A stretch of 64,000 bases of DNA. It comes from Candidatus Woesearchaeota archaeon. GTDB lineage: Archaea > Nanobdellota > Nanobdellia > Woesearchaeales > ARS49. Of the stretch, positions 1,943 through 10,862 are shown piece after piece. The DNA lies in assembly GCA_019323015.1 (NCBI GenBank), contig JAHWHY010000002.1:15100-79099 (forward strand), in the 5' to 3' direction. A program made the position numbers and the translations under genes. Below the pieces are notes generated by a model that saw nothing but the letters and a program-made list of their open reading frames with translations, searched no databases and had not been told where the DNA came from. Position 1 is the stretch's first letter, and each line of letters starts with the position of its first letter.

Positions 1943-4327
1943 CTAATCTTTTCGTGTAATTCTCCTTATAAATATTTCTATAAGCAAGAGTATAATTGCC
2001 GCGATTATGAACGGCTGTCTCACTGTCTCTTTTGTGACAACTGTTCTTTTTGCTCTTGTTTTTGTGAACTGGATTATTGCGTCTATGTCATTCTTTCCGA
2101 ATATTTTTCCTCCTGTACTCTCTGTTATGCTTTTCAGTTCTGGGTTAAAGCCCATCAATTCATATTCTGAAGGGTAGTTTGCTGCAAATGTTGCAGTCAG
2201 TATGTTCTGGAATCCTGTCTGTGTTGGTGTTACTGTTGTTGCATACATGTCTTCATCTATCTTGTAGAACACTCCTTGGTCTGATTTTGGGACTGTTTTT
2301 GATTTTACTATGACTTCTGTTGGCTCATTAACGCGCGTGTCTGGTATCTCTATGAATTCCTGGCTTTTTCTTTCTGGATCTCCTATTGCCCAGTTGAATG
2401 TTCTTGTTAATAGGTTTGAGTTTGCTTTGTTCAGCAGGTCTCCTGCCCAGTCGCTTCCATCGTCTGTTGTTAATGCTGCGATTCTTCCTAATCCAAGCCT
2501 CCATACTGTGAGGATTGGTTCTCCTGTTGATGTTGTTGCAAGCATTCTTGCTGTTGTTTTTGGGACTGCGTTGTTGAAGCCGTATATGAATGCTTTTGGC
2601 TCTATTCCTGCTGTGATGAAATGATTTGAATCAAGTATCTGGAGATTCATCTTGTTTGACTGCTGCTCCTGCTCGTCAAGATCTCCGAATAGTATTTTTA
2701 GTCTTGAGCTCTCTGTTGCCCTGAAGTAGATTCCATTTGCCAGCTGTGCAATCTGCTGCATCAGTTCTTCATTTGTTGTTGGTCCTACTCCTACTGTGTA
2801 GATTTTTATTCCCATTGTTTGCGCTAGTTTTGCTGCTTCTGTTGCAGCTGCTTCTGCCTGTGTCTTGCCGTCGCTTATGAGGATTATGTTTTTTCCTCCT
2901 GCCATTTCTTCTAGTATCTGTATTGCTTTCAATAAGCCTCCGCTCACTAGTGTTCCTCCGCCGTGGGATAACCTGCCTATCTTGTCTTCTAGTCCTTGTT
3001 TTTCATAGACATAGCTTGGTTCTGACACAAGGTATGCTTTTGTGTTGAATGCGACTACTGCCAGCCTTGTGTTCATTGAAAGGTCCTTGTATGCTCCTAG
3101 TGCTAGTGCTTTTTCCATGTCAACTGTTGTTGCATCACCAAATGCTGCGCTTGTGCTGCCGCTGATGTCAACTACTATGACTATGCTTGTCTCTCCTTCT
3201 TTTTTTCCAGGTGCTGCAATGTAGACAGGAAGTATTGTCTCAAATAATGAGCCTTTGTAGTCTCCTCTGTCAAATGAGTTGTCTCCTCCTATCACGACCA
3301 TTCCGTTTCCGTCTGCCACAAAGTCATTCAAGACGTCTGTTGTTGCTTTCAAGGTGTCTGCATGGAGGTTGTTGATTCCAATTGCGTAATAATCATTTAA
3401 TGGCGGAAGGCTGTTTCCGCTCTCGACAACATATACCTGGTCAAGCAGTGTTTTCATTGGTGATGGGTTTTCTGTGTAAAAGAATATTTTTGGTCTTGGA
3501 ACTACCTTGACTGTCTTGTAGAATATGTTGTTTTGCGGGAAATAATCATTTGATTGTATCTGCGCAACTATTTTGTGATATCCTGGTGTTAATAGTTTTG
3601 TGAATTGAAGTATTGGCTCGTCTGTTGTCTTGTCAATCACTGTTTCTCCGTCAAATGTGACTTTTACAGGTATCTTTTTCACAGTTCCTACTGTGTTTAT
3701 GATTATGCTGAACTTGTTTTCTACTCCTTCCTGGCTTTTTGCTGGACCTATTACCACGACTCCAGAATCATCGTGTATTGGGTTGAGGTCTATTGCATTT
3801 ATTGTTGAGTTTAGTTTTCCTGCAAACAAGGCAACGTCTCCGAGGCTTGATCCTTCATTAGAGTTTCCATCTGATATCAAGAGTATGCTGTCCTGTGGTT
3901 CAAGATTGTTCAGTATAGCGTCTCCTATTGCAGAGTGTTCTCCTTCTCCTATGGTCTCTACCTCTACTGTTAGTTTTTTCTCTAGTGCTTTTGCAAGCTC
4001 ATTTGCATTGTTTTCAAATAATTTCATTGATGTGGAATTGTCCACAAGTATTTTTACATAGATATCTCCTTGTATTGTCTTGCTTGTCTGGTGATATGGT
4101 GCTGCAAGTGCAATCAGTAACAGTATGATAATTGCTGCTCTTGTAAAGAAAAGAATCCTTCTTAGGAATTTTTTCTGTTTTACTACATCTGGGTCTTCTT
4201 TTACTTTCACGAATTTTTTCTTTAGGATAAAGTAAAGCACTATTATGATTGGTATGAATAATAAGATTGCCCATGGCTGTTCAAAATACCTGTATGCAAT
4301 TTCCAGTGCTGTTCTTACAAATGTCAT
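1943..4327 (-). CDS. Membrane-anchored vWA-domain protein
   Basis: Two MIDAS-like starts (VDNSTSM, VVDISGST), LLISDG/ILISDG motifs, N- and C-terminal TM helices, and a glutamine-amidotransferase-like middle (GMVVIGGDNSF). Confidence 0.85.
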   Translation of the reverse strand: MTFVRTALEIAYRYFEQPWAILLFIPIIIVLYFILKKKFVKVKEDPDVVKQKKFLRRILFFTRAAIIILLLIALAAPYHQTSKTIQGDIYVKILVDNSTSMKLFENNANELAKALEKKLTVEVETIGEGEHSAIGDAILNNLEPQDSILLISDGNSNEGSSLGDVALFAGKLNSTINAIDLNPIHDDSGVVVIGPAKSQEGVENKFSIIINTVGTVKKIPVKVTFDGETVIDKTTDEPILQFTKLLTPGYHKIVAQIQSNDYFPQNNIFYKTVKVVPRPKIFFYTENPSPMKTLLDQVYVVESGNSLPPLNDYYAIGINNLHADTLKATTDVLNDFVADGNGMVVIGGDNSFDRGDYKGSLFETILPVYIAAPGKKEGETSIVIVVDISGSTSAAFGDATTVDMEKALALGAYKDLSMNTRLAVVAFNTKAYLVSEPSYVYEKQGLEDKIGRLSHGGGTLVSGGLLKAIQILEEMAGGKNIILISDGKTQAEAAATEAAKLAQTMGIKIYTVGVGPTTNEELMQQIAQLANGIYFRATESSRLKILFGDLDEQEQQSNKMNLQILDSNHFITAGIEPKAFIYGFNNAVPKTTARMLATTSTGEPILTVWRLGLGRIAALTTDDGSDWAGDLLNKANSNLLTRTFNWAIGDPERKSQEFIEIPDTRVNEPTEVIVKSKTVPKSDQGVFYKIDEDMYATTVTPTQTGFQNILTATFAANYPSEYELMGFNPELKSITESTGGKIFGKNDIDAIIQFTKTRAKRTVVTKETVRQPFIIAAIILLLIEIFIRRITRKD

Positions 4328-6123
4328 ACATCCCCTCTTATTTTGATATACATTATTTCCAGCAGTATTATGAGTCCTGCTGCAAGGATAAGTAATGGCT
4401 CTAGCTCAAGTTTTCTTGTCTCTTTTACTGGCTTTAGCTCAAACTGTGTTGATTTTGCCCCTATTATTGTTTCTGCATTTATCTCTGACTCTTTTTCATC
4501 CAAAAGATTTGCTGCGATTCTTTTGTCTTCTAGTTCATAAACTCCTGAGCTTTCAAGCATTATTGTTGCCTGCTTGACTGTTTTTATCGGTGTTTTTATT
4601 GTTTGCTCGCTGTCTAATATCACTGTGTCTTTTGTGAGATAATTTAGATTTTTCAGGTCAAGCTGTCCTGTCAGGTATCTCAGCATCTCTGTCCAGAATA
4701 TTGGGTAGCTTGGAGAGTACTTGAAGTCTGCAGTGCTTTCTGGTATGCCGTAATAAACTAGTTTTCCGCTTCCTGCTTTTCCTAGTGATATGATTGTGTC
4801 ATTTCCCAGGGATACGATTGTTGTGAATCCTTGTTCTTGTCCTGTTGTTGTGAAGTGTGATGTTATGCTGCCAAAGTCTATGTTTTTTGTGAACTTGTTC
4901 AATTGTTCAACACCCACGAATCCGCCGTTTCCTTTTCCTGTTAGTTTTAGTGGGAGCAGGTTCTTGTAATTTATTTGATTAGAGTCTTCCTGTACATGCA
5001 CTACCACATTTGCTCCGTTCTGTACTGCGTAATATAGTGCATCAAATGTTCCTGGCAGTACTTCATTCATGTCAAGGTTGTGCAGTATGTAGACGTCATA
5101 GCCTTCCACAGGGACAACTGGTGGTTTTATCACAGTTACCTGCACGTCTCCTGATGCTTCTAGTGCATTTTTCAGGAATACTGATGCATTATTTGTGACA
5201 AGTGCTGCTTTTGTTTTTTCTGTCTCTGGCGCGCTTAGGTATGCGAGGTTGTCTATCTTAAAGTCATCATCTGTTACAAGCATCATTTGTGTTATGCCGT
5301 TTGGTGTCTTGAATGTGAATGTTTCAGAGCTCTTTGGCCCCAGATTGAGTTCTTTTTGTACATCTCCTACTTTTAGTGTTGCAAATCTTGCAGTGTCATC
5401 AAAGTTTTTCACATAAACTGTTGCTTCTTCCCTGTCTGCTTCTATGTTTATGATTCCTATGTTTGATGCTTTTTTCTCTGCAACATTGACGAAGTTTACC
5501 ACTAGTCCTTTTGATTCTAGTATTGATTTTGCGATGTTGGGGTCCTGCCCTCCTGTGTTTATGAAATCACTTAATACTATTACAGCGCCTTCGCTTCCAA
5601 GTGCTTCTCCTGCTAGTATGATTGAGTCTCCTATTCTTGATGTTGATTCTGTTGGCTGGGCTTTATTTAGGTATTTTGCTGCTTCAGCAGATGTTGCTTC
5701 TTTGACAACTATTGAAGGGACTTCTTTTGCAAGTATGATTGTGTTTTTTGCTCCTAGCATCTGTTTTGCTTTGTCTTTTGCCTTGTCAAACCTGCTGTAC
5801 TGTCCTTCCAGGGCCTGCATTGAGGCGCTTGCGTCAAGTACAATCACTGTGTTTTGTGCTGTTATGTCATGCTGGTAGTTTGTGAATGGCTTTGCTATGC
5901 TTAATGCAAGAAGCAGGATTATCAGTAATTGTATCAGGAACAGCCAGTCTCTTATGAATTTCTTGAAAAAAGAGCTTAGCTTGTTTCTGCCAGATGATTG
6001 TATGAAGAACATGAGGCTTGGTATCTCTATTGTCTGCGGTTTTGGGCGTATTAAATAGAGTAAAATAAGAGGAATTAGACTAATAAGTGCTAATAATCCA
6101 AGCATACTCCCTATATGTATCAC
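4324..6123 (-). CDS. BatA-like N-terminal domain plus vWA-domain protein
   Basis: N-terminal LIPLILLYLIRPKP...PSLMF (BatA-like), VLDASASM MIDAS, IVLSDF and a C-terminal TM. Confidence 0.85.
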   Translation of the reverse strand: MIHIGSMLGLLALISLIPLILLYLIRPKPQTIEIPSLMFFIQSSGRNKLSSFFKKFIRDWLFLIQLLIILLLALSIAKPFTNYQHDITAQNTVIVLDASASMQALEGQYSRFDKAKDKAKQMLGAKNTIILAKEVPSIVVKEATSAEAAKYLNKAQPTESTSRIGDSIILAGEALGSEGAVIVLSDFINTGGQDPNIAKSILESKGLVVNFVNVAEKKASNIGIINIEADREEATVYVKNFDDTARFATLKVGDVQKELNLGPKSSETFTFKTPNGITQMMLVTDDDFKIDNLAYLSAPETEKTKAALVTNNASVFLKNALEASGDVQVTVIKPPVVPVEGYDVYILHNLDMNEVLPGTFDALYYAVQNGANVVVHVQEDSNQINYKNLLPLKLTGKGNGGFVGVEQLNKFTKNIDFGSITSHFTTTGQEQGFTTIVSLGNDTIISLGKAGSGKLVYYGIPESTADFKYSPSYPIFWTEMLRYLTGQLDLKNLNYLTKDTVILDSEQTIKTPIKTVKQATIMLESSGVYELEDKRIAANLLDEKESEINAETIIGAKSTQFELKPVKETRKLELEPLLILAAGLIILLEIMYIKIRGDV

Positions 6124-6168: not shown

Positions 6169-6774
6169 TTATGGTGCTGAAACATGTCTTATTGGCGCGT
6201 CTGGATTTGCTGGTTTTGCAGGTGCTTTTTTTTCATATCTTGCCAGCATTCCTTGCCTAAGTGCCTCTGCTTGCAGAGATAATGGTTCTTCTGGTCCATG
6301 ATAAGCATCCTCTACAGTAGGGGATTCTTCATAATGTGTGCTGTGCTCTTCTAAAGGCATAGCTACATATGTCACTCTGCATCCATTTATTGTGTTTCCA
6401 TTTTCATTTAATTTTGCTTGTAAATCATGAAGATTGTCTAGGGCTGCTTGGTCCATTGCTAGAATCACAAGGTGGTCTGTGCGACTTGGAGGGTTTTGTA
6501 TTGTTCCTGCGATTTCTGCTGCTTTTTCAATGCATTGCAAGAGATTGCGCCTGCTTCCTTCACCCGGCTTAAAACTAACAGGCTTGAACTCAGCTAGGCT
6601 TTCCCCTATTGAATACAGAACTAAATCATGTTCTACAAATTCTTTGCCAGAGTAAAATACCCCCATTAAAGGAGCTTCTCCTCTCTCAATGAGATCCCTG
6701 ATTATTGTAAAGCCTTTTGTAGATTTGTGTCTTGACCCTAAAAATTTTTCTAGTCTTGCTATGTATAAATCCAT
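6169..6774 (-). CDS. Hypothetical protein
   Basis: 201 aa ORF with its own AT-rich/TATA upstream region; no family recognised. Confidence 0.55.
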   Translation of the reverse strand: MDLYIARLEKFLGSRHKSTKGFTIIRDLIERGEAPLMGVFYSGKEFVEHDLVLYSIGESLAEFKPVSFKPGEGSRRNLLQCIEKAAEIAGTIQNPPSRTDHLVILAMDQAALDNLHDLQAKLNENGNTINGCRVTYVAMPLEEHSTHYEESPTVEDAYHGPEEPLSLQAEALRQGMLARYEKKAPAKPANPDAPIRHVSAP

Positions 6775-6860: not shown

Positions 6861-8465
6861 CTATTTTTTCTTCCATTTGTCAAAATATTCCTTTAGAATA
6901 AAGCTGATGTTCTTCCCCACTTTAATGTAATCTTTGTCATCCAGGTTTGCTACTGAAACCCGCAAAGACCATTTTGGGCCTGCAAATCCTTCTCCTGGAA
7001 GGCACACTGTTGCTTTTTCTTTTGCTAGTTTGAACAAGAATTGGTCTATCACATGGTTTTTTTGCAGGTGTTCTGCAAATGCCTTGCCGTATTTTTTCTC
7101 TGCAGCCCTTGCAAGGTCAATAAGTGCATAATAATATGTGTGCTCTCCTCCTTTTGGAAGAGGAATCTTGAGATTCTTGTAAAGATACTTTACTCTTGTC
7201 TTGAGTATTGACTGTATTGATTTTTTGTATTTCCTTTTCTTGTCCATCAAATAAAAGAGTGAAAATAGTGTCATTATTGTCTGTTGAGGCCCTGATATGC
7301 CTCCTGTGTGTGCAAGTGCTACGTCTCTGCTGTCCATCTCTAGTCTGTCAATGAATTTTATCTTGTCTGGATTTGTTGATGTCATCTGGTATCTTTTTCT
7401 CAGCACTGCTTTGTCTTTTGCAGGAAGTTTTGCAAGCAGCTTATCAATTACATTGTCTTTGCTAAGCATTATCACACCTAGTCTCCAGCCTGTAACCCCA
7501 AAAAATTTAGAGTAGGAATAAACACAGATTGTGTTGCGCGGAACCATTTCTAAAAATGAGTTGAACTTATCAACAAAAGTTGCATAGACTGTGTCAGTGA
7601 GCACAATAAGGTCTTTTCTTTTCTTTATTATTTTTGCAATCTTCTTGAGTGTCTCTTTCTTTAGCTTGATTGATGTTGGATTTGTTGGGTGCACCATGAA
7701 GAATGCTTTTATTTTCTTGTTTTTCAGCTTCTCCATCTCAGAATCAGGCACCTGCCATCCCTTGTCTTCATCTCCTTTGACATATACTTCCACTAGATTA
7801 TAATCTGCAAGTGAAGGTATCTCCAGGTATGGTGAGAATATTGGCGTCATTATTGCAATAGAGTCTTTTTTCTTCAATATCCTGTTCTCCTTCAAGGATT
7901 TAAAGACATACACCATTGCTGCTGTTGCCCCTTCTGTTGCAAATAAGTCAAAGTTTTTTGCAGGATGTTTTTTGTCTGCGCAGAGTATTTCTGTAAGATA
8001 TTCATTCATTATTTTTGCCATGTTTGGAAATACTCTTGGCGGCGATGGATAGAAATCTCCTCTTATTGCGTCTGTCAGTTCATCAACAAAGTTATCTGGG
8101 TTAAGCTTGAATTTTTTCTCTGCAAATGCTATTGATTTTTTCAAGAACAAGGCTCCTTCTCCTTTTTGGTTTCCAAGATATTTCTTGAGCTTGTTTGCAA
8201 TGCCTTTTTTCTCTGGCCTCAGGCCAAGGTCTTTCTTTGATATTTTTTTGCCAGCTTCTTGGGCAGCAAACATGTTCAGGTGGCTGAATCCTTCTCTGGC
8301 AGTTGTGTTGAGAAAGTTTGGGTTTCCCCTGCCTGCATTGAGAAATTTTATCTTGTTTCTTTTTGAAGACGCTTCTGCCATCTTTATGAAGACATTCTTT
8401 ATCTCAAAAGGGCTCATCTGCAGGTATTCCCGCATCTTTTTGTCTAGTTTCATCTTGTCTGCCAC
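6861..8465 (-). CDS. aspD: Aspartate 4-decarboxylase (PLP-dependent, bifunctional aminotransferase/beta-decarboxylase)
   Basis: LNAGRGNPN, GDFYPSPPR, FATEGATAAM, DTVYATF, YSYSKFFGVTGWRLG (PLP lysine), ALAHTGGISGPQQ, SLRVSVANL. Confidence 0.9.
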   Translation of the reverse strand: MADKMKLDKKMREYLQMSPFEIKNVFIKMAEASSKRNKIKFLNAGRGNPNFLNTTAREGFSHLNMFAAQEAGKKISKKDLGLRPEKKGIANKLKKYLGNQKGEGALFLKKSIAFAEKKFKLNPDNFVDELTDAIRGDFYPSPPRVFPNMAKIMNEYLTEILCADKKHPAKNFDLFATEGATAAMVYVFKSLKENRILKKKDSIAIMTPIFSPYLEIPSLADYNLVEVYVKGDEDKGWQVPDSEMEKLKNKKIKAFFMVHPTNPTSIKLKKETLKKIAKIIKKRKDLIVLTDTVYATFVDKFNSFLEMVPRNTICVYSYSKFFGVTGWRLGVIMLSKDNVIDKLLAKLPAKDKAVLRKRYQMTSTNPDKIKFIDRLEMDSRDVALAHTGGISGPQQTIMTLFSLFYLMDKKRKYKKSIQSILKTRVKYLYKNLKIPLPKGGEHTYYYALIDLARAAEKKYGKAFAEHLQKNHVIDQFLFKLAKEKATVCLPGEGFAGPKWSLRVSVANLDDKDYIKVGKNISFILKEYFDKWKKK

Positions 8466-9862
8466 ACTTTTCTTAGTGCAAATATGATGAATGGCACTAT
8501 TAGCAGTGTTGTTATTCCTCCTATTGTTATTGTGAGGTATGCTGTTGCATCAGTGACATGCAGTTGTGCTGGAGGAAGGAATGCTATTATAAAGCCAAAT
8601 ACTAGTGTCGCTAGTCCTACAAGTGATACAAGCCATATGCCGAACCAGCCTCCTGGAATTTTGTATGCTCTTTTTGCTTTTGGCATGGAATATCTTAGTT
8701 TTAGGCATGCAAGTATCATCATTGCATACATGAAGAAGTATATGCAGCACGCCATTGCATTTGCCATCCAGAATGCGGTGTTTAATTTTGGCATAAGCAG
8801 TAATCCACAGCCGATTAATGATATTACTGTTGCCTGCACAATCAATAATCTTACTGGAATTCCTTTTTTGTTTTCTTTGTTAAAGAATTTTGGAAGTGCT
8901 CCTGTTTTTGCACTTGCATAAACTGCTTTTACAGGCCCTAGTGTCCAGGTTGTTATCTCTCCTAATGCGCCTATTGCTGTTAGTATTGCAAGTACTGGAA
9001 CAAGCCAGGCAAGATGGAATTGTCCAAAAAATACCTTGAATGCCTCCATTAGTCCTGCTGCAAGGCTGATTTGCTGTTGAGGAACCACTATTGCGACTGC
9101 AAGTGATCCTAATATGTTTAATGCAAGAGCCAATACGACTACTACTAATATTGCCAATGGATAATTTCTTCCAGGGTTTTTTACCTCGTTTGCGTGTGAA
9201 GCAGACACCTCTATTCCTGTGAATGTTCTCATGAAGCCTACTAATAATACAAGTGTTGTTAGCTTGCTTAGGTCTGGTATTATGTTTTTTGCTGTGAGTG
9301 ACATGTTCATCTGTATTGGGTTGCCAGTCACCCAGTATATTATTCCAAATAAGATTATCAGTACTCCGGGTATCAGCACTCCTAGAAGAAATCCGTATGT
9401 GCTTATTTTTCCAGATGCTTTCAATCCCCGGAAGTTGTATATTGTTGCTGCCCAAGTCACTAATAATACGATTAATGCCATGAATGGTTTGCTGTGTGCT
9501 AGTGCAGGCATCATTACAAATGCAAGTGATCCTGCAATAAAATAAAGCATTGGTACGCTTCCTATCATCATGTAGGTCCACTGGAGCCAGCTGCTCACAA
9601 AACCAAATCTGTCTCCAAATGCTGCTTTTACCCATGCAAATATTCCTCCTTGTTTTGGCAGCAGTGTTGCCAGCTCTGCTGACACTAATGCAACTGGGAT
9701 AAAGAACCCGATTGCAGCAAATAATGCGAAGAATATCATCTGCATTCCTGTCTCTGCTTCTGTTGGGAAATTTCTTACGCTTATCACAAGCGCAGATGAA
9801 ATCATTATCAGTGTAAACAAGCTTATTTTGTGCTTTATTGCAGAAAGTGTTTTTCTCACCAT
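8450..9862 (-). CDS. APC-superfamily amino acid antiporter (GadC/YjeH-like)
   Basis: About 12 TM segments; SVRNFP, PVALVSAELAT, GGIFAWVKAAFG, GIEVSASHANEVKNPGRNYP. Overlaps the aspD start by 16 nt. Confidence 0.85.
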   Translation of the reverse strand: MVRKTLSAIKHKISLFTLIMISSALVISVRNFPTEAETGMQMIFFALFAAIGFFIPVALVSAELATLLPKQGGIFAWVKAAFGDRFGFVSSWLQWTYMMIGSVPMLYFIAGSLAFVMMPALAHSKPFMALIVLLVTWAATIYNFRGLKASGKISTYGFLLGVLIPGVLIILFGIIYWVTGNPIQMNMSLTAKNIIPDLSKLTTLVLLVGFMRTFTGIEVSASHANEVKNPGRNYPLAILVVVVLALALNILGSLAVAIVVPQQQISLAAGLMEAFKVFFGQFHLAWLVPVLAILTAIGALGEITTWTLGPVKAVYASAKTGALPKFFNKENKKGIPVRLLIVQATVISLIGCGLLLMPKLNTAFWMANAMACCIYFFMYAMMILACLKLRYSMPKAKRAYKIPGGWFGIWLVSLVGLATLVFGFIIAFLPPAQLHVTDATAYLTITIGGITTLLIVPFIIFALRKVWQTR

Positions 9863-9902
9863 TTTATTCTCTTTTTGTTTTAATAGTATATAATTTTTAT
9901 GT

Positions 9903-10862
9903 CTACATTAGCTGTGTGACTGTTAATTTTAGTGCTACATATCCTATGTAGACAAGTATGAGTGTGATTGCCTCTCTTTTCTCCAGCTTCATCTTTGTTC
10001 TTAACAAGAAGATTGCCAGGACAGCTACGCCTATCATGAATGGTACGTCAAATTCAAGCAAGGAAGAATTAACATTGAATCCTTTTGCAATTATGGAGCT
10101 TAATCCTAATGTGAATAATATGTCAAATATGTTGCTTCCTATCAGGTTGCCGATTGACAAGCCTCCTGCTTTTTTCATGACTGCATTTGCGCAGATTGAT
10201 AATTCAGGAAGGCTTGTTCCAAATCCTACTATTAATAATCCTATCAATGTTTGGGAGACTCCCCATATGTTTGCTAATACTACTGCATTGTCTACAGTTG
10301 CTCTTGCACCAACTATTAAGAATACAAATCCTGCAAGCAGAGAAGCAACTGACCACACAAATACGCCCCATCCTTTTTGGTTTCTTATCTTTTCTGTTAT
10401 TTTTTCTTCTCTAGCGACTGTCATGAAATAAAAGATGTATATTATCACCATTATTATTCCGTCAAACATAGAGATCTGCCCGTCAAGGCTCATCAATAGC
10501 ATTACTGCTGCTGCCCCTACCATTACTAATCCGTCTCTTAAGAATTCTCTTTTTGATATTATTACTACTCCAAATAATCCTACAACTCCTAGAATAAAGG
10601 TTGTCTGGCTTATGACTGTTCCTACTGTCTCTCCCACTATCAGGCCGGATGTGTCTGCAACGCCGTATAGTTTTTGCAATGCTGCTGTTATGTCAATGAA
10701 TAGTTCTGGCAAGTCACTGCCCATTGCCAGGACAGTTAATCCCATGAACATATGAGATATCTTTAGTCTTTTTGCTATGCTTATTGAGCCTCTTGTCACT
10801 AATTCTGCACCTACCCATAAGCCCACTAATCCCAAGATTAAGTATAATAACTCGTATTGCAA
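9903..10862 (-). CDS. Ca2+/Na+ (CaCA, YrbG-like) antiporter
   Basis: Two alpha repeats: LAMGSDLPELF and VGFGTSLPELSI...GNLIGSNIFDIL. Confidence 0.9.
   Translation of the reverse strand: MQYELLYLILGLVGLWVGAELVTRGSISIAKRLKISHMFMGLTVLAMGSDLPELFIDITAALQKLYGVADTSGLIVGETVGTVISQTTFILGVVGLFGVVIISKREFLRDGLVMVGAAAVMLLMSLDGQISMFDGIIMVIIYIFYFMTVAREEKITEKIRNQKGWGVFVWSVASLLAGFVFLIVGARATVDNAVVLANIWGVSQTLIGLLIVGFGTSLPELSICANAVMKKAGGLSIGNLIGSNIFDILFTLGLSSIIAKGFNVNSSLLEFDVPFMIGVAVLAIFLLRTKMKLEKREAITLILVYIGYVALKLTVTQLM

Follow-up and report, generated by a model that had tools for sequence, protein, structure and literature searches.

A GadC/TyrP-like carrier paired with aspartate 4-decarboxylase in a woesearchaeotal genome: a candidate Asp:Ala decarboxylation cycle of probable bacterial origin

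In the window analysed here, a stretch of 64,000 nucleotides from a Candidatus Woesearchaeota archaeon, two minus-strand open reading frames, a permease followed by an aspartate 4-decarboxylase (AspD), lie exactly where the initial annotation had placed them, with the overlap and the neighbouring CaCA antiporter gene that it described (Table 1). The AspD frame (8465..6861) opens at a GTG at 8465, from which the overlap measures 16 nt, and the alignment of the AspD homologues begins at the ATG at 8453. The resulting ATGA overlap suggests that the carrier and the decarboxylase may be translationally coupled, and the TTATATA element upstream of the permease may represent an archaeal promoter whose transcripts have little or no leader.

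Table 1. Features of the permease-aspD locus, in window coordinates
Feature	Coordinates	Strand	Description
CaCA Na+/Ca2+ or H+/Ca2+ exchanger	9903..10862	(-)	PF01699 and TIGR00367; upstream of permease
TTATATA, TATA-box-like	9887..9893	(-)	About 28 nt 5' of the permease ATG, inside the 40 nt between the CaCA gene and the permease
Permease	8450..9862	(-)	470 aa; APC-superfamily GadC/TyrP-like carrier; proposed aspartate(1-):alanine(0) exchanger
ATGA start/stop overlap	8450..8453	(-)	In-frame ATG at 8453 against permease stop at 8452-8450; read from the sequence
AspD/AsdA aspartate 4-decarboxylase	6861..8453	(-)	530 aa from the ATG at 8453; annotated as bifunctional transaminase/beta-decarboxylase
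201-aa soluble ORF	6169..6774	(-)	Fills the slot of the exported type II asparaginase of sister genomes

The host genome is of the Woesearchaeota type, 1.15 Mb in size and 95% complete. The pair is flanked by archaeal core genes recognised through Pfam/NCBIfam matches (Cbf5, S19e and an archaeal-type ThrRS), and the proteins closest to it are named Candidatus Woesearchaeota, in agreement with the DPANN host that had been proposed. Contamination or misbinning can be rejected, given these archaeal flanks, the synteny shared with the related loci L003, L133-L136 and the shorter L138, and a GC and GC3 content of the pair that is typical for the host genome. The CaCA gene adjoins the pair throughout the genus (L003 and L133-L138), and no such neighbour was seen at the bacterial loci that carry the cassette, for which reason it was discarded as a component of the module; it is possibly a user of the gradient. 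The 201-aa ORF gave no Pfam or NCBIfam match, and it presents no similarity to L003 over that interval.

The enzyme scores well above the cut-offs of two curated equivalog models, NF006755 (704 bits, cut-off 321) and TIGR03801 (645 bits, cut-off 435), and it aligns with the solved AspD structures 2ZY2/3FDD at 444 bits across residues 5-528. The Arg of the N-terminal NAGRGNP motif, the PLP Lys (SYSK) and the carboxylate-binding Arg are all retained, and all three align identically with 2ZY2/3FDD; we assume for these residues the roles attributed to them in AspD, the NAGRGNP Arg corresponding to R37 of the Pseudomonas enzyme. The proposed identity is thereby upheld at the level of the family: judged by its sequence, this is a bona fide AspD-family member, predicted to convert L-aspartate into L-alanine by beta-decarboxylation.

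The carrier belongs to the GadC/TyrP-like (GGA) branch of the APC superfamily, with a 12-TM LeuT-type fold in which TM1 and TM6 are unwound, a fold that can be considered settled because of the sequence identity to GadC. It matches PF13520 (AA_permease_2) at 236 bits, and its best NCBIfam matches are the GadC and TyrP models, at 410, 373, 358 and 333 bits, all of them under the equivalog cut-offs of 630-673; for the GadC models TIGR00910, NF053662 and TIGR03813, the scores of 358, 373 and 410 bits do not reach the respective cut-offs of 673, 640 and 650. The alignment with the GadC structure 4DJI (E=5e-87) covers GadC residues 12-467 of 511, and the G-[IV]-E motif of TM6 aligns with both GadC and AdiC. 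In the AF2 model (pLDDT 80.6), TM1 is broken at residues 27-30 and TM6 at residues 214-216. The C-terminal plug of E. coli GadC, which we take to comprise about residues 477-511, is missing, given that the protein ends at residue 470 and the alignment stops at GadC 467. A profile search with the AspT model TIGR03802 found no match anywhere in the 95%-complete genome, and the carrier is, as had been proposed, of the APC type rather than AspT.

In the carrier tree, the permease falls within a clade of 20 GadC/TyrP-like carriers (support 100) that includes every aspD-linked carrier, and the neighbouring clades consist of carriers linked to tyrosine decarboxylase (TyrDC; 21 carriers) or to ornithine, lysine or arginine (OKR) decarboxylases (3 carriers). 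As these sister clades are all linked to decarboxylases, the family context is that of precursor/product antiport. The position of the TM6 gate, W202 in AdiC, and that of A96 were located through what we take to be the substrate-binding residues of AdiC. The W202 column contains Arg in exactly the 20 carriers of the clade and in no others of the set, Phe in 21/21 TyrDC-linked carriers, and Leu in the OKR-linked carriers and GadC. The A96 column contains Glu in the OKR-linked carriers, which may serve as an internal control, suggesting that the two columns reflect side-chain chemistry. In the AF2 model, the Arg of the permease, Arg212, is found where TM6a ends, beside the unwound segment, and the alignment to AdiC suggests that it may contact the substrate. 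An Arg at the substrate gate throughout the clade would be consistent with an acidic substrate.

The search for the same pairing elsewhere recovered a conserved linkage, co-inherited across phyla, with parallel gene trees. Among the best-matching genome loci, nine have aspD immediately after the permease (Woesearchaeota, Dependentiae, three unclassified bacteria and four Chlamydiota), and aspD also comes after it in 6/6 close metagenomic relatives that have downstream sequence. Of the 120 best relatives of the permease, 33 have a longest contig equal in length to that of one of the 120 best relatives of AspD, which suggests that the two lie on the same contig. The pairing recurs in at least three phyla, in Woesearchaeota, Dependentiae-like bacteria and Chlamydiota. 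Among 300 sampled genomes of the Chlamydiota, 11 have AspD, with an APC carrier upstream in eight, AspT in one and neither in two. Carriers of the clade also occur without AspD, as tandem copies adjoining a peptide-binding-protein gene in four chlamydial genomes where no AspD was found, and in an Omnitrophota genome, where one stands beside an asparaginase only, the AspD of that genome having AspT as its partner at another locus. Obligate Asp:Ala exchange is, then, not a necessary property of the carrier. Nothing relevant was found in the literature on an APC-type Asp:Ala exchanger or on the pairing of an APC carrier with AspD.

The topology of the AspD tree parallels that of the carriers, and a branch with a support of 100 separates the APC-linked from the AspT-linked enzymes, to which the APC-linked type of the host is 38-47% identical. 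The APC-type clade of AspD also includes enzymes from Planctomycetes, Syntrophales, Sulfurovum and others. The archaeal copies nest inside bacteria in both trees, and AspD was found in only 2/401 genomes of the phylum, which makes the transfer of a cassette from bacteria to the archaeon likely. The acquisition from bacteria that had been suggested thus agrees with both gene trees and with the phyletic pattern. Within the family, AspD was found in 1/28 other members sampled, and the relatives manage without the module.

Further evidence on the substrate comes from the asparaginases. In sister genomes (L003/L083 and L134-L136), aspD is followed by a type II-like asparaginase that bears a signal or a lipobox at its N-terminus, and in the Omnitrophota relative an OprB-type porin gene precedes the carrier, which is followed by a signal-bearing asparaginase. 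These apparently exported enzymes point to external aspartate as the probable substrate. No asparaginase lies beside the pair in this window or in L133, and a free asparaginase elsewhere in the host genome was also ruled out, given that its sole asparaginase-fold gene is GatD and the 201-aa ORF is unrelated.

With respect to the energetics of the cell, neither A/V/F-type ATPase A/B subunits (PF00006) nor V_ATPase_I (PF01496) were found in the host genome, nor was an H+-pyrophosphatase (PF03030). PF00006 is also missing from the genome of the same genus and from 29/30 other family members, with a real A/B pair in 1/31 family genomes. No Rnf, Mrp, Nuo or decarboxylase sodium pump was recognised among the 50 multi-TM ORFs, about one third of which have no family match. 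No proton or sodium pump was recognised among these ORFs, and the sole recognised primary pump is a P-type ATPase that was rejected as a candidate for this role, being of the SERCA Ca2+ type by NCBIfam. The carriers that use gradients comprise four CPA-type cation/proton antiporters, two CaCA exchangers, four MFS carriers, one HAAAP permease and SecDF. Given that there is no ATP synthase, the aspartate loop cannot make ATP here, and any proton-motive force could only power secondary transport and pH homeostasis, so that the energetic benefit of the module is indirect. Of the chemiosmotic module envisaged in the initial annotation, the AspD, the APC-type carrier, the conserved pairing and a probable bacterial origin are supported, and the check for an A/V-type ATPase that it proposed gave a negative result.

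Taken together, we consider it probable that the two genes form one operon, gained as a bacterial cassette by the ancestor of the genus, and run an Asp:Ala decarboxylation cycle that energises the membrane. The substrate pair, the antiport mode, the electrogenicity and the physiological role of the carrier are inferred, and the exchange of aspartate for alanine, with charging of the membrane, is the most likely function that its sequence suggests. In this cycle, the carrier, a distinct GadC/TyrP-family branch with its invariant TM6-gate Arg, would take up the L-aspartate anion, which AspD would turn into L-alanine and CO2 with the use of one cytoplasmic proton, and the alanine would leave through the same carrier in exchange for the next aspartate. 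Each turnover would thus bring in one negative charge and use one proton, setting up a pH gradient along with a membrane potential; the scheme is that of AspT/AspD, with a carrier that is not orthologous to AspT. In this cell without ATP synthase, the secondary carriers and pH homeostasis would be the direct consumers of the gradient.

The most readily envisaged alternative is nutritional: the carrier would act as an aspartate uniporter or proton symporter, and AspD would supply alanine or, via its transaminase activity, other amino or keto acids to a cell unable to make amino acids itself. The chlamydial carriers found beside a peptide-binding-protein gene in genomes without AspD would fit this role, as would the existence of symporters in the APC superfamily, the bifunctional annotation of AspD and the general lack of amino-acid biosynthesis in Woesearchaeota (PMC11606122). 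Nevertheless, it is improbable, given that precursor/product exchange is typically recognised by a carrier and a decarboxylase that are tightly linked, apparently coupled in translation and repeatedly transferred together, that every sister clade of carriers is linked to a decarboxylase, and that the direct import of alanine would cost less. It is also improbable that the main role is acid resistance or the buffering of cytoplasmic pH, as in GadC/GadB and AdiC/AdiA, with the membrane potential as a by-product. The absent plug, which gates GadC transport by pH, argues against this role, together with the gate Arg, which suggests that the carrier binds the anionic aspartate dominant at neutral pH (GadC has Leu), and with the sources of the relatives, which, by record titles only, are seawater, groundwater and sediment; none of this is decisive, and GadC is indeed the nearest characterised relative of the carrier, aspartate decarboxylation does use up a proton, and many of the bacterial hosts of the cassette are, according to record titles, intracellular symbionts that may be exposed to acidic vacuoles.

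An exchange of asparagine for aspartate or alanine, comparable to the import of glutamine by GadC for the glutaminase YbaS, has very little probability. It would account for the asparaginase gene after AspD in the sister genomes and directly after the carrier in the Omnitrophota genome, but the signals or lipoboxes of these type II-like enzymes would place deamidation outside the cell, and this window, L133 and the remainder of the host genome contain no asparaginase other than the GatD fold. Returning to the favoured Asp:Ala cycle, a broader version of it is doubtful, if conceivable. In this version, the cycle would be the main source of the membrane potential, with chemiosmosis uncoupled from ATP synthesis and serving transport alone; lineages that are unrelated but have in common a dependence on hosts and a reduced genome (DPANN, Dependentiae, Chlamydiota) would have come to share the cassette as a portable battery for the membrane; and the carrier clade, marked by the TM6 Arg, would constitute a substrate class new to the GadC family. 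The host also has no recognised respiratory chain or Rnf/Mrp-type complex, an observation that belongs to this broader version.

Among the systems closest to this one is the asp operon of Tetragenococcus halophilus, along with the widespread TIGR03802/TIGR03801 pair, in which the electrogenic exchange of Asp(1-) for Ala(0) and the beta-decarboxylation result in a proton-motive force (PMC12462496; Abe 2002, PMC135062). The enzyme family, the proposed cycle and the adjacent, co-oriented genes are the same, and reference AspT-AspD pairs were seen in Listeria, Bacteroides, Ruegeria and Pantoea plasmids; the carrier here, however, has the APC/LeuT fold rather than being of the AAE family, in a genome without AspT, and the host lacks an F/A-type ATPase that could convert the gradient into ATP. 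The GadC-GadB system of E. coli, with YbaS, provides the closest solved structure and family models for the carrier and the same logic of a carrier with a PLP decarboxylase, and differs in the GadC equivalog cut-offs that the carrier does not reach, the plug, the Leu at the gate and a partner that is a group II glutamate decarboxylase, whereas AspD is a fold-type I, aminotransferase-like enzyme. The asparaginase of the sister genomes parallels YbaS, but this amidase is exported rather than cytoplasmic.

In the TyrP-TyrDC and CadB/PotE/AdiC-type systems, the sister-clade carriers, some of which occur in Micrarchaeota and methanogens, are likewise followed directly by genes for TyrDC or Orn/Lys/Arg decarboxylases; their partner enzymes differ from AspD, their gate residue is Phe or Leu, and Gln or Glu occupies their A96 position. 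The AaxABC system of Chlamydia, which we take to be a porin, an arginine decarboxylase and an APC antiporter, also unites a decarboxylase with an APC exchanger in host-dependent bacteria, and its porin is comparable to that upstream of the Omnitrophota carrier, but its chemistry is that of arginine and agmatine, and its pyruvoyl enzyme is unrelated to AspD.

To our knowledge, AspT is the only carrier described for aspartate decarboxylation and exchange, and we know of no simpler route to a proton-motive force than amino-acid decarboxylation with precursor/product exchange. The job of AspT appears to have been taken on by a second family of carriers, unrelated to it, whose one-residue signature at the TM6 gate (Arg, Phe or Leu) provides a natural experiment on substrate choice in APC antiporters. 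Finally, the locus would represent the transfer from a bacterium to an archaeon of a bioenergetic cassette that is also common to obligate symbionts of eukaryotes, and it offers a testable answer to the question of how some DPANN archaea without an ATP synthase could energise their many secondary transporters.

The two ORFs described in the initial annotation were confirmed on the minus strand, and their coordinates proved exact. The downstream ORF is unambiguously assigned, by its profile scores, as an aspartate 4-decarboxylase (AspD), which matches the solved AspD structures 2ZY2 and 3FDD at 444 bits and, when aligned to them, keeps the NAGRGNP arginine, the PLP lysine and the carboxylate-binding arginine. 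Among curated family models, the upstream carrier matches those of the GadC and TyrP antiporters best (410, 373, 358 and 333 bits), at scores far under the equivalog cut-offs of 630-673. With the in-frame ATG at 8453 as its start, AspD has an ATGA overlap with the stop codon of the permease, and a TTATATA element some 28 nt 5' of the permease ATG is a probable archaeal promoter. The cassette lies between a CaCA exchanger and Cbf5 upstream and S19e and an archaeal ThrRS downstream.

Features of the cassette and of related loci (window positions unless a contig or locus is named; G000, the window's genome)
Feature	Coordinates	Strand	Remarks
APC-superfamily permease	9862..8450	-	upstream ORF; 470 aa; PF13520 236 bits
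Aspartate 4-decarboxylase	8453..6861	-	downstream ORF; NF006755 704 bits (cut-off 321); TIGR03801 645 (cut-off 435)
201-aa soluble ORF	6169-6774	-	no family match; own AT-rich upstream region
BatA-like and VWA/GATase1-like genes	1943-6123	-	BatA-like: DUF7406/7407/7408 + VWA
Sister-genome asparaginase	L003:8996-10087; L134:~8005-9087; L135:7996-9084; L136:5015-5614		operon extension
Omnitrophota locus	L010:4583-8507		OprB porin, carrier, asparaginase
Second CaCA exchanger beside Ca2+-ATPase	G000:C13:40734-44358		outside window
Three tandem paralogous ORFs	G000:C22:13905-15676		outside window; ~190 aa and five predicted TM each; no Pfam match

The cassette is a resident chromosomal locus of this assembly (1.15 Mb, 22 contigs, 95% complete), and the nearest relatives of both proteins are from Candidatus Woesearchaeota. 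A binning artefact is ruled out by the genome-typical GC and GC3 (GC of 0.40 and 0.38 for the cassette, with a long-ORF genome mean of 0.393 +/- 0.025) and by synteny, as the order Cbf5, CaCA, carrier, AspD, ..., BatA-like is repeated in the same-genus record L003 and the metagenome contigs L133-L136, while the shorter contig L138 holds the CaCA-to-carrier segment. The BatA-like and VWA/GATase1-like membrane protein genes downstream of the module are syntenic across all sister contigs. An unpublished same-genus genome, G243 (the source of locus L083), was included in the AspD phylum count and the ATPase family count; given that the operon is also found in the public L003 record and in contig L135, no conclusion rests on G243 alone.

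When a single genome of each species was scanned with aligned relatives of the carrier, 80 loci were recovered, and the same pairing was found elsewhere, with aspD (by tblastn) directly downstream and co-oriented in nine: one from Woesearchaeota, one from Dependentiae, three from unclassified bacteria and four from Chlamydiota. It also follows the carrier in all six close metagenome relatives with downstream sequence, and, among the best 120 matches of each protein search, 33 carrier relatives agree with an AspD relative in the length of the longest contig. AspD is present in 11 of 300 sampled Chlamydiota genomes, eight of them with an APC carrier upstream, one with AspT and two with neither within 1.5 kb. 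In other loci of the scan the next gene is a tyrosine decarboxylase (21) or an Orn/Lys/Arg decarboxylase (3), and the surrounding family may thus be regarded as precursor/product exchangers whose partner enzymes have been switched. The tyrosine decarboxylase follows related carriers, with Phe at the gate position, in Micrarchaeota/archaea (L028, L042, L053, L060, L070), Methanoregula (L032, L075) and loci L020, L047 and L065, some loci being arranged carrier, decarboxylase, carrier, which suggests tyrosine/tyramine cycles in DPANN Micrarchaeota and methanogens.

In the maximum-likelihood tree of 86 carriers, all of the aspD-linked members fall within one clade of 20 (SH-aLRT 100, stem length 0.4), together with an Omnitrophota copy next to an asparaginase and ten chlamydial paralogues, mostly in tandem pairs. 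The carriers were aligned with E. coli GadC and AdiC at positions which we take, from the AdiC structure literature, to be those of substrate and gate. At the column of AdiC Trp202, which ends TM6a immediately before the G-[IV]-E motif, Arg occurs in exactly these 20 members, Phe in 21 of 21 tyrosine-decarboxylase-linked carriers, and Leu in GadC and the Orn/Lys/Arg-linked carriers. The AdiC Ala96 position has Tyr in the Arg clade and Glu in the basic-amino-acid-linked carriers, the latter suggesting that these columns follow side-chain chemistry. An AlphaFold2 model of the carrier (pLDDT 80.6) places Arg212 on the last turn of TM6a, beside the unwound residues 214-216, and a cationic gate residue would fit the recognition of anionic aspartate.

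The bacterial acquisition proposed in the initial annotation is supported by both gene trees. Sampling of 401 genomes from the phylum turned up AspD in 2 (1 of 281 genera), and a branch with support of 100 divides the AspT-linked enzymes (Listeria, Bacteroides, Ruegeria and Pantoea plasmids, one chlamydia) from a clade with all of the APC-linked ones, where the Woesearchaeota AspDs (99) are nested within a Dependentiae-like bacterial group (95) with the chlamydial group as sister. The topology of the carrier tree agrees with this and, given the matching nesting and the rarity in the phylum, the two genes appear to have moved together, most likely from bacteria to this archaeal lineage. The transfer is old enough for composition to have equilibrated and for relatives to have diverged down to 65-89% identity.

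A type II-like asparaginase of 363 aa follows AspD in the same genus (L003/L083) and in L134-L136, with an N-terminal hydrophobic signal and, in the L003 copy, a lipobox-like LAC. It is absent after AspD in the window and in L133. The window's slot is taken by the 201-aa ORF, which neither L003 nor L133 carries and which is ruled out as an asparaginase, being unrelated in sequence; the sole asparaginase-fold gene of the genome is GatD. The asparaginase of the Omnitrophota locus, beside an Arg-clade carrier, also bears a signal. Exported asparaginases would yield extracellular aspartate, an indication that this is what the carrier imports.

The ATPase check suggested in the initial annotation was negative, as no ATP-synthase A/B domain (PF00006), V_ATPase_I or H+-pyrophosphatase was found in the window's genome. 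A real A/B pair occurs in one of 31 genomes of the family, the subunits being missing from the window's genome and 29 of the 30 other sampled members, among them the same-genus genome and that of L003; the bacterial hosts of the cassette possess such ATPases. The 50 multi-TM ORFs annotated include four CPA cation/proton antiporters, two CaCA exchangers, four MFS carriers, a HAAAP permease, and SecDF, EamA, ZIP and ABC-2 proteins, the sole recognised primary pump being a SERCA-type Ca2+-ATPase, with the second CaCA exchanger directly beside it. Gradient-consuming proteins thus abound in this genome and recognised gradient-generating ones are few, although a pump of unrecognised type may exist, since roughly one in three of these ORFs lacks a family match.

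The best-supported mechanism, which we consider somewhat probable, would be an AspT/AspD-like cycle with a non-orthologous carrier: aspartate(1-) would be imported by the carrier, a proton consumed by AspD and alanine exported, with the gradient spent on transport and pH control, not on ATP synthesis. The chemiosmotic loop of the initial annotation is retained in this form, with no ATP synthase found. One rival is acid resistance; GadC, the carrier's nearest characterised relative, has a C-terminal plug and Leu at the gate, whereas this carrier has no plug and Arg212. Another is plain aspartate uptake, with alanine supplied by AspD. A caveat to the Asp:Ala cycle comes from the Arg-clade carriers of four chlamydial genomes (L017, L018, L019, L023), in which AspD was not found.

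A second caveat comes from the Omnitrophota genome, where the carrier adjoins only the asparaginase and AspD forms a canonical pair with AspT at a separate locus (L149); asparagine-based exchange is the third rival. Both carrier types thus occur in that one genome. In the four chlamydial genomes (Anoxychlamydiales/Parachlamydiales), the tandem carriers lie downstream of an SBP_bac_5 peptide-binding-protein gene.

The described system pairs AspD with AspT (PMC12462496, PMC8508797), whereas here the carrier is APC-type and its AspD belongs to a separate clade, with no AspT found in the window's genome (95% complete). In the literature searched, no publication was found that describes an APC-type partner for AspD or reports the pairing from Chlamydiae, Dependentiae or Woesearchaeota. 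What is new here is the archaeal instance and its probable bacterial origin, the Arg/Phe/Leu gate signature, the putatively exported asparaginase, and the occurrence of such a cassette in a genome with no ATP synthase detected.
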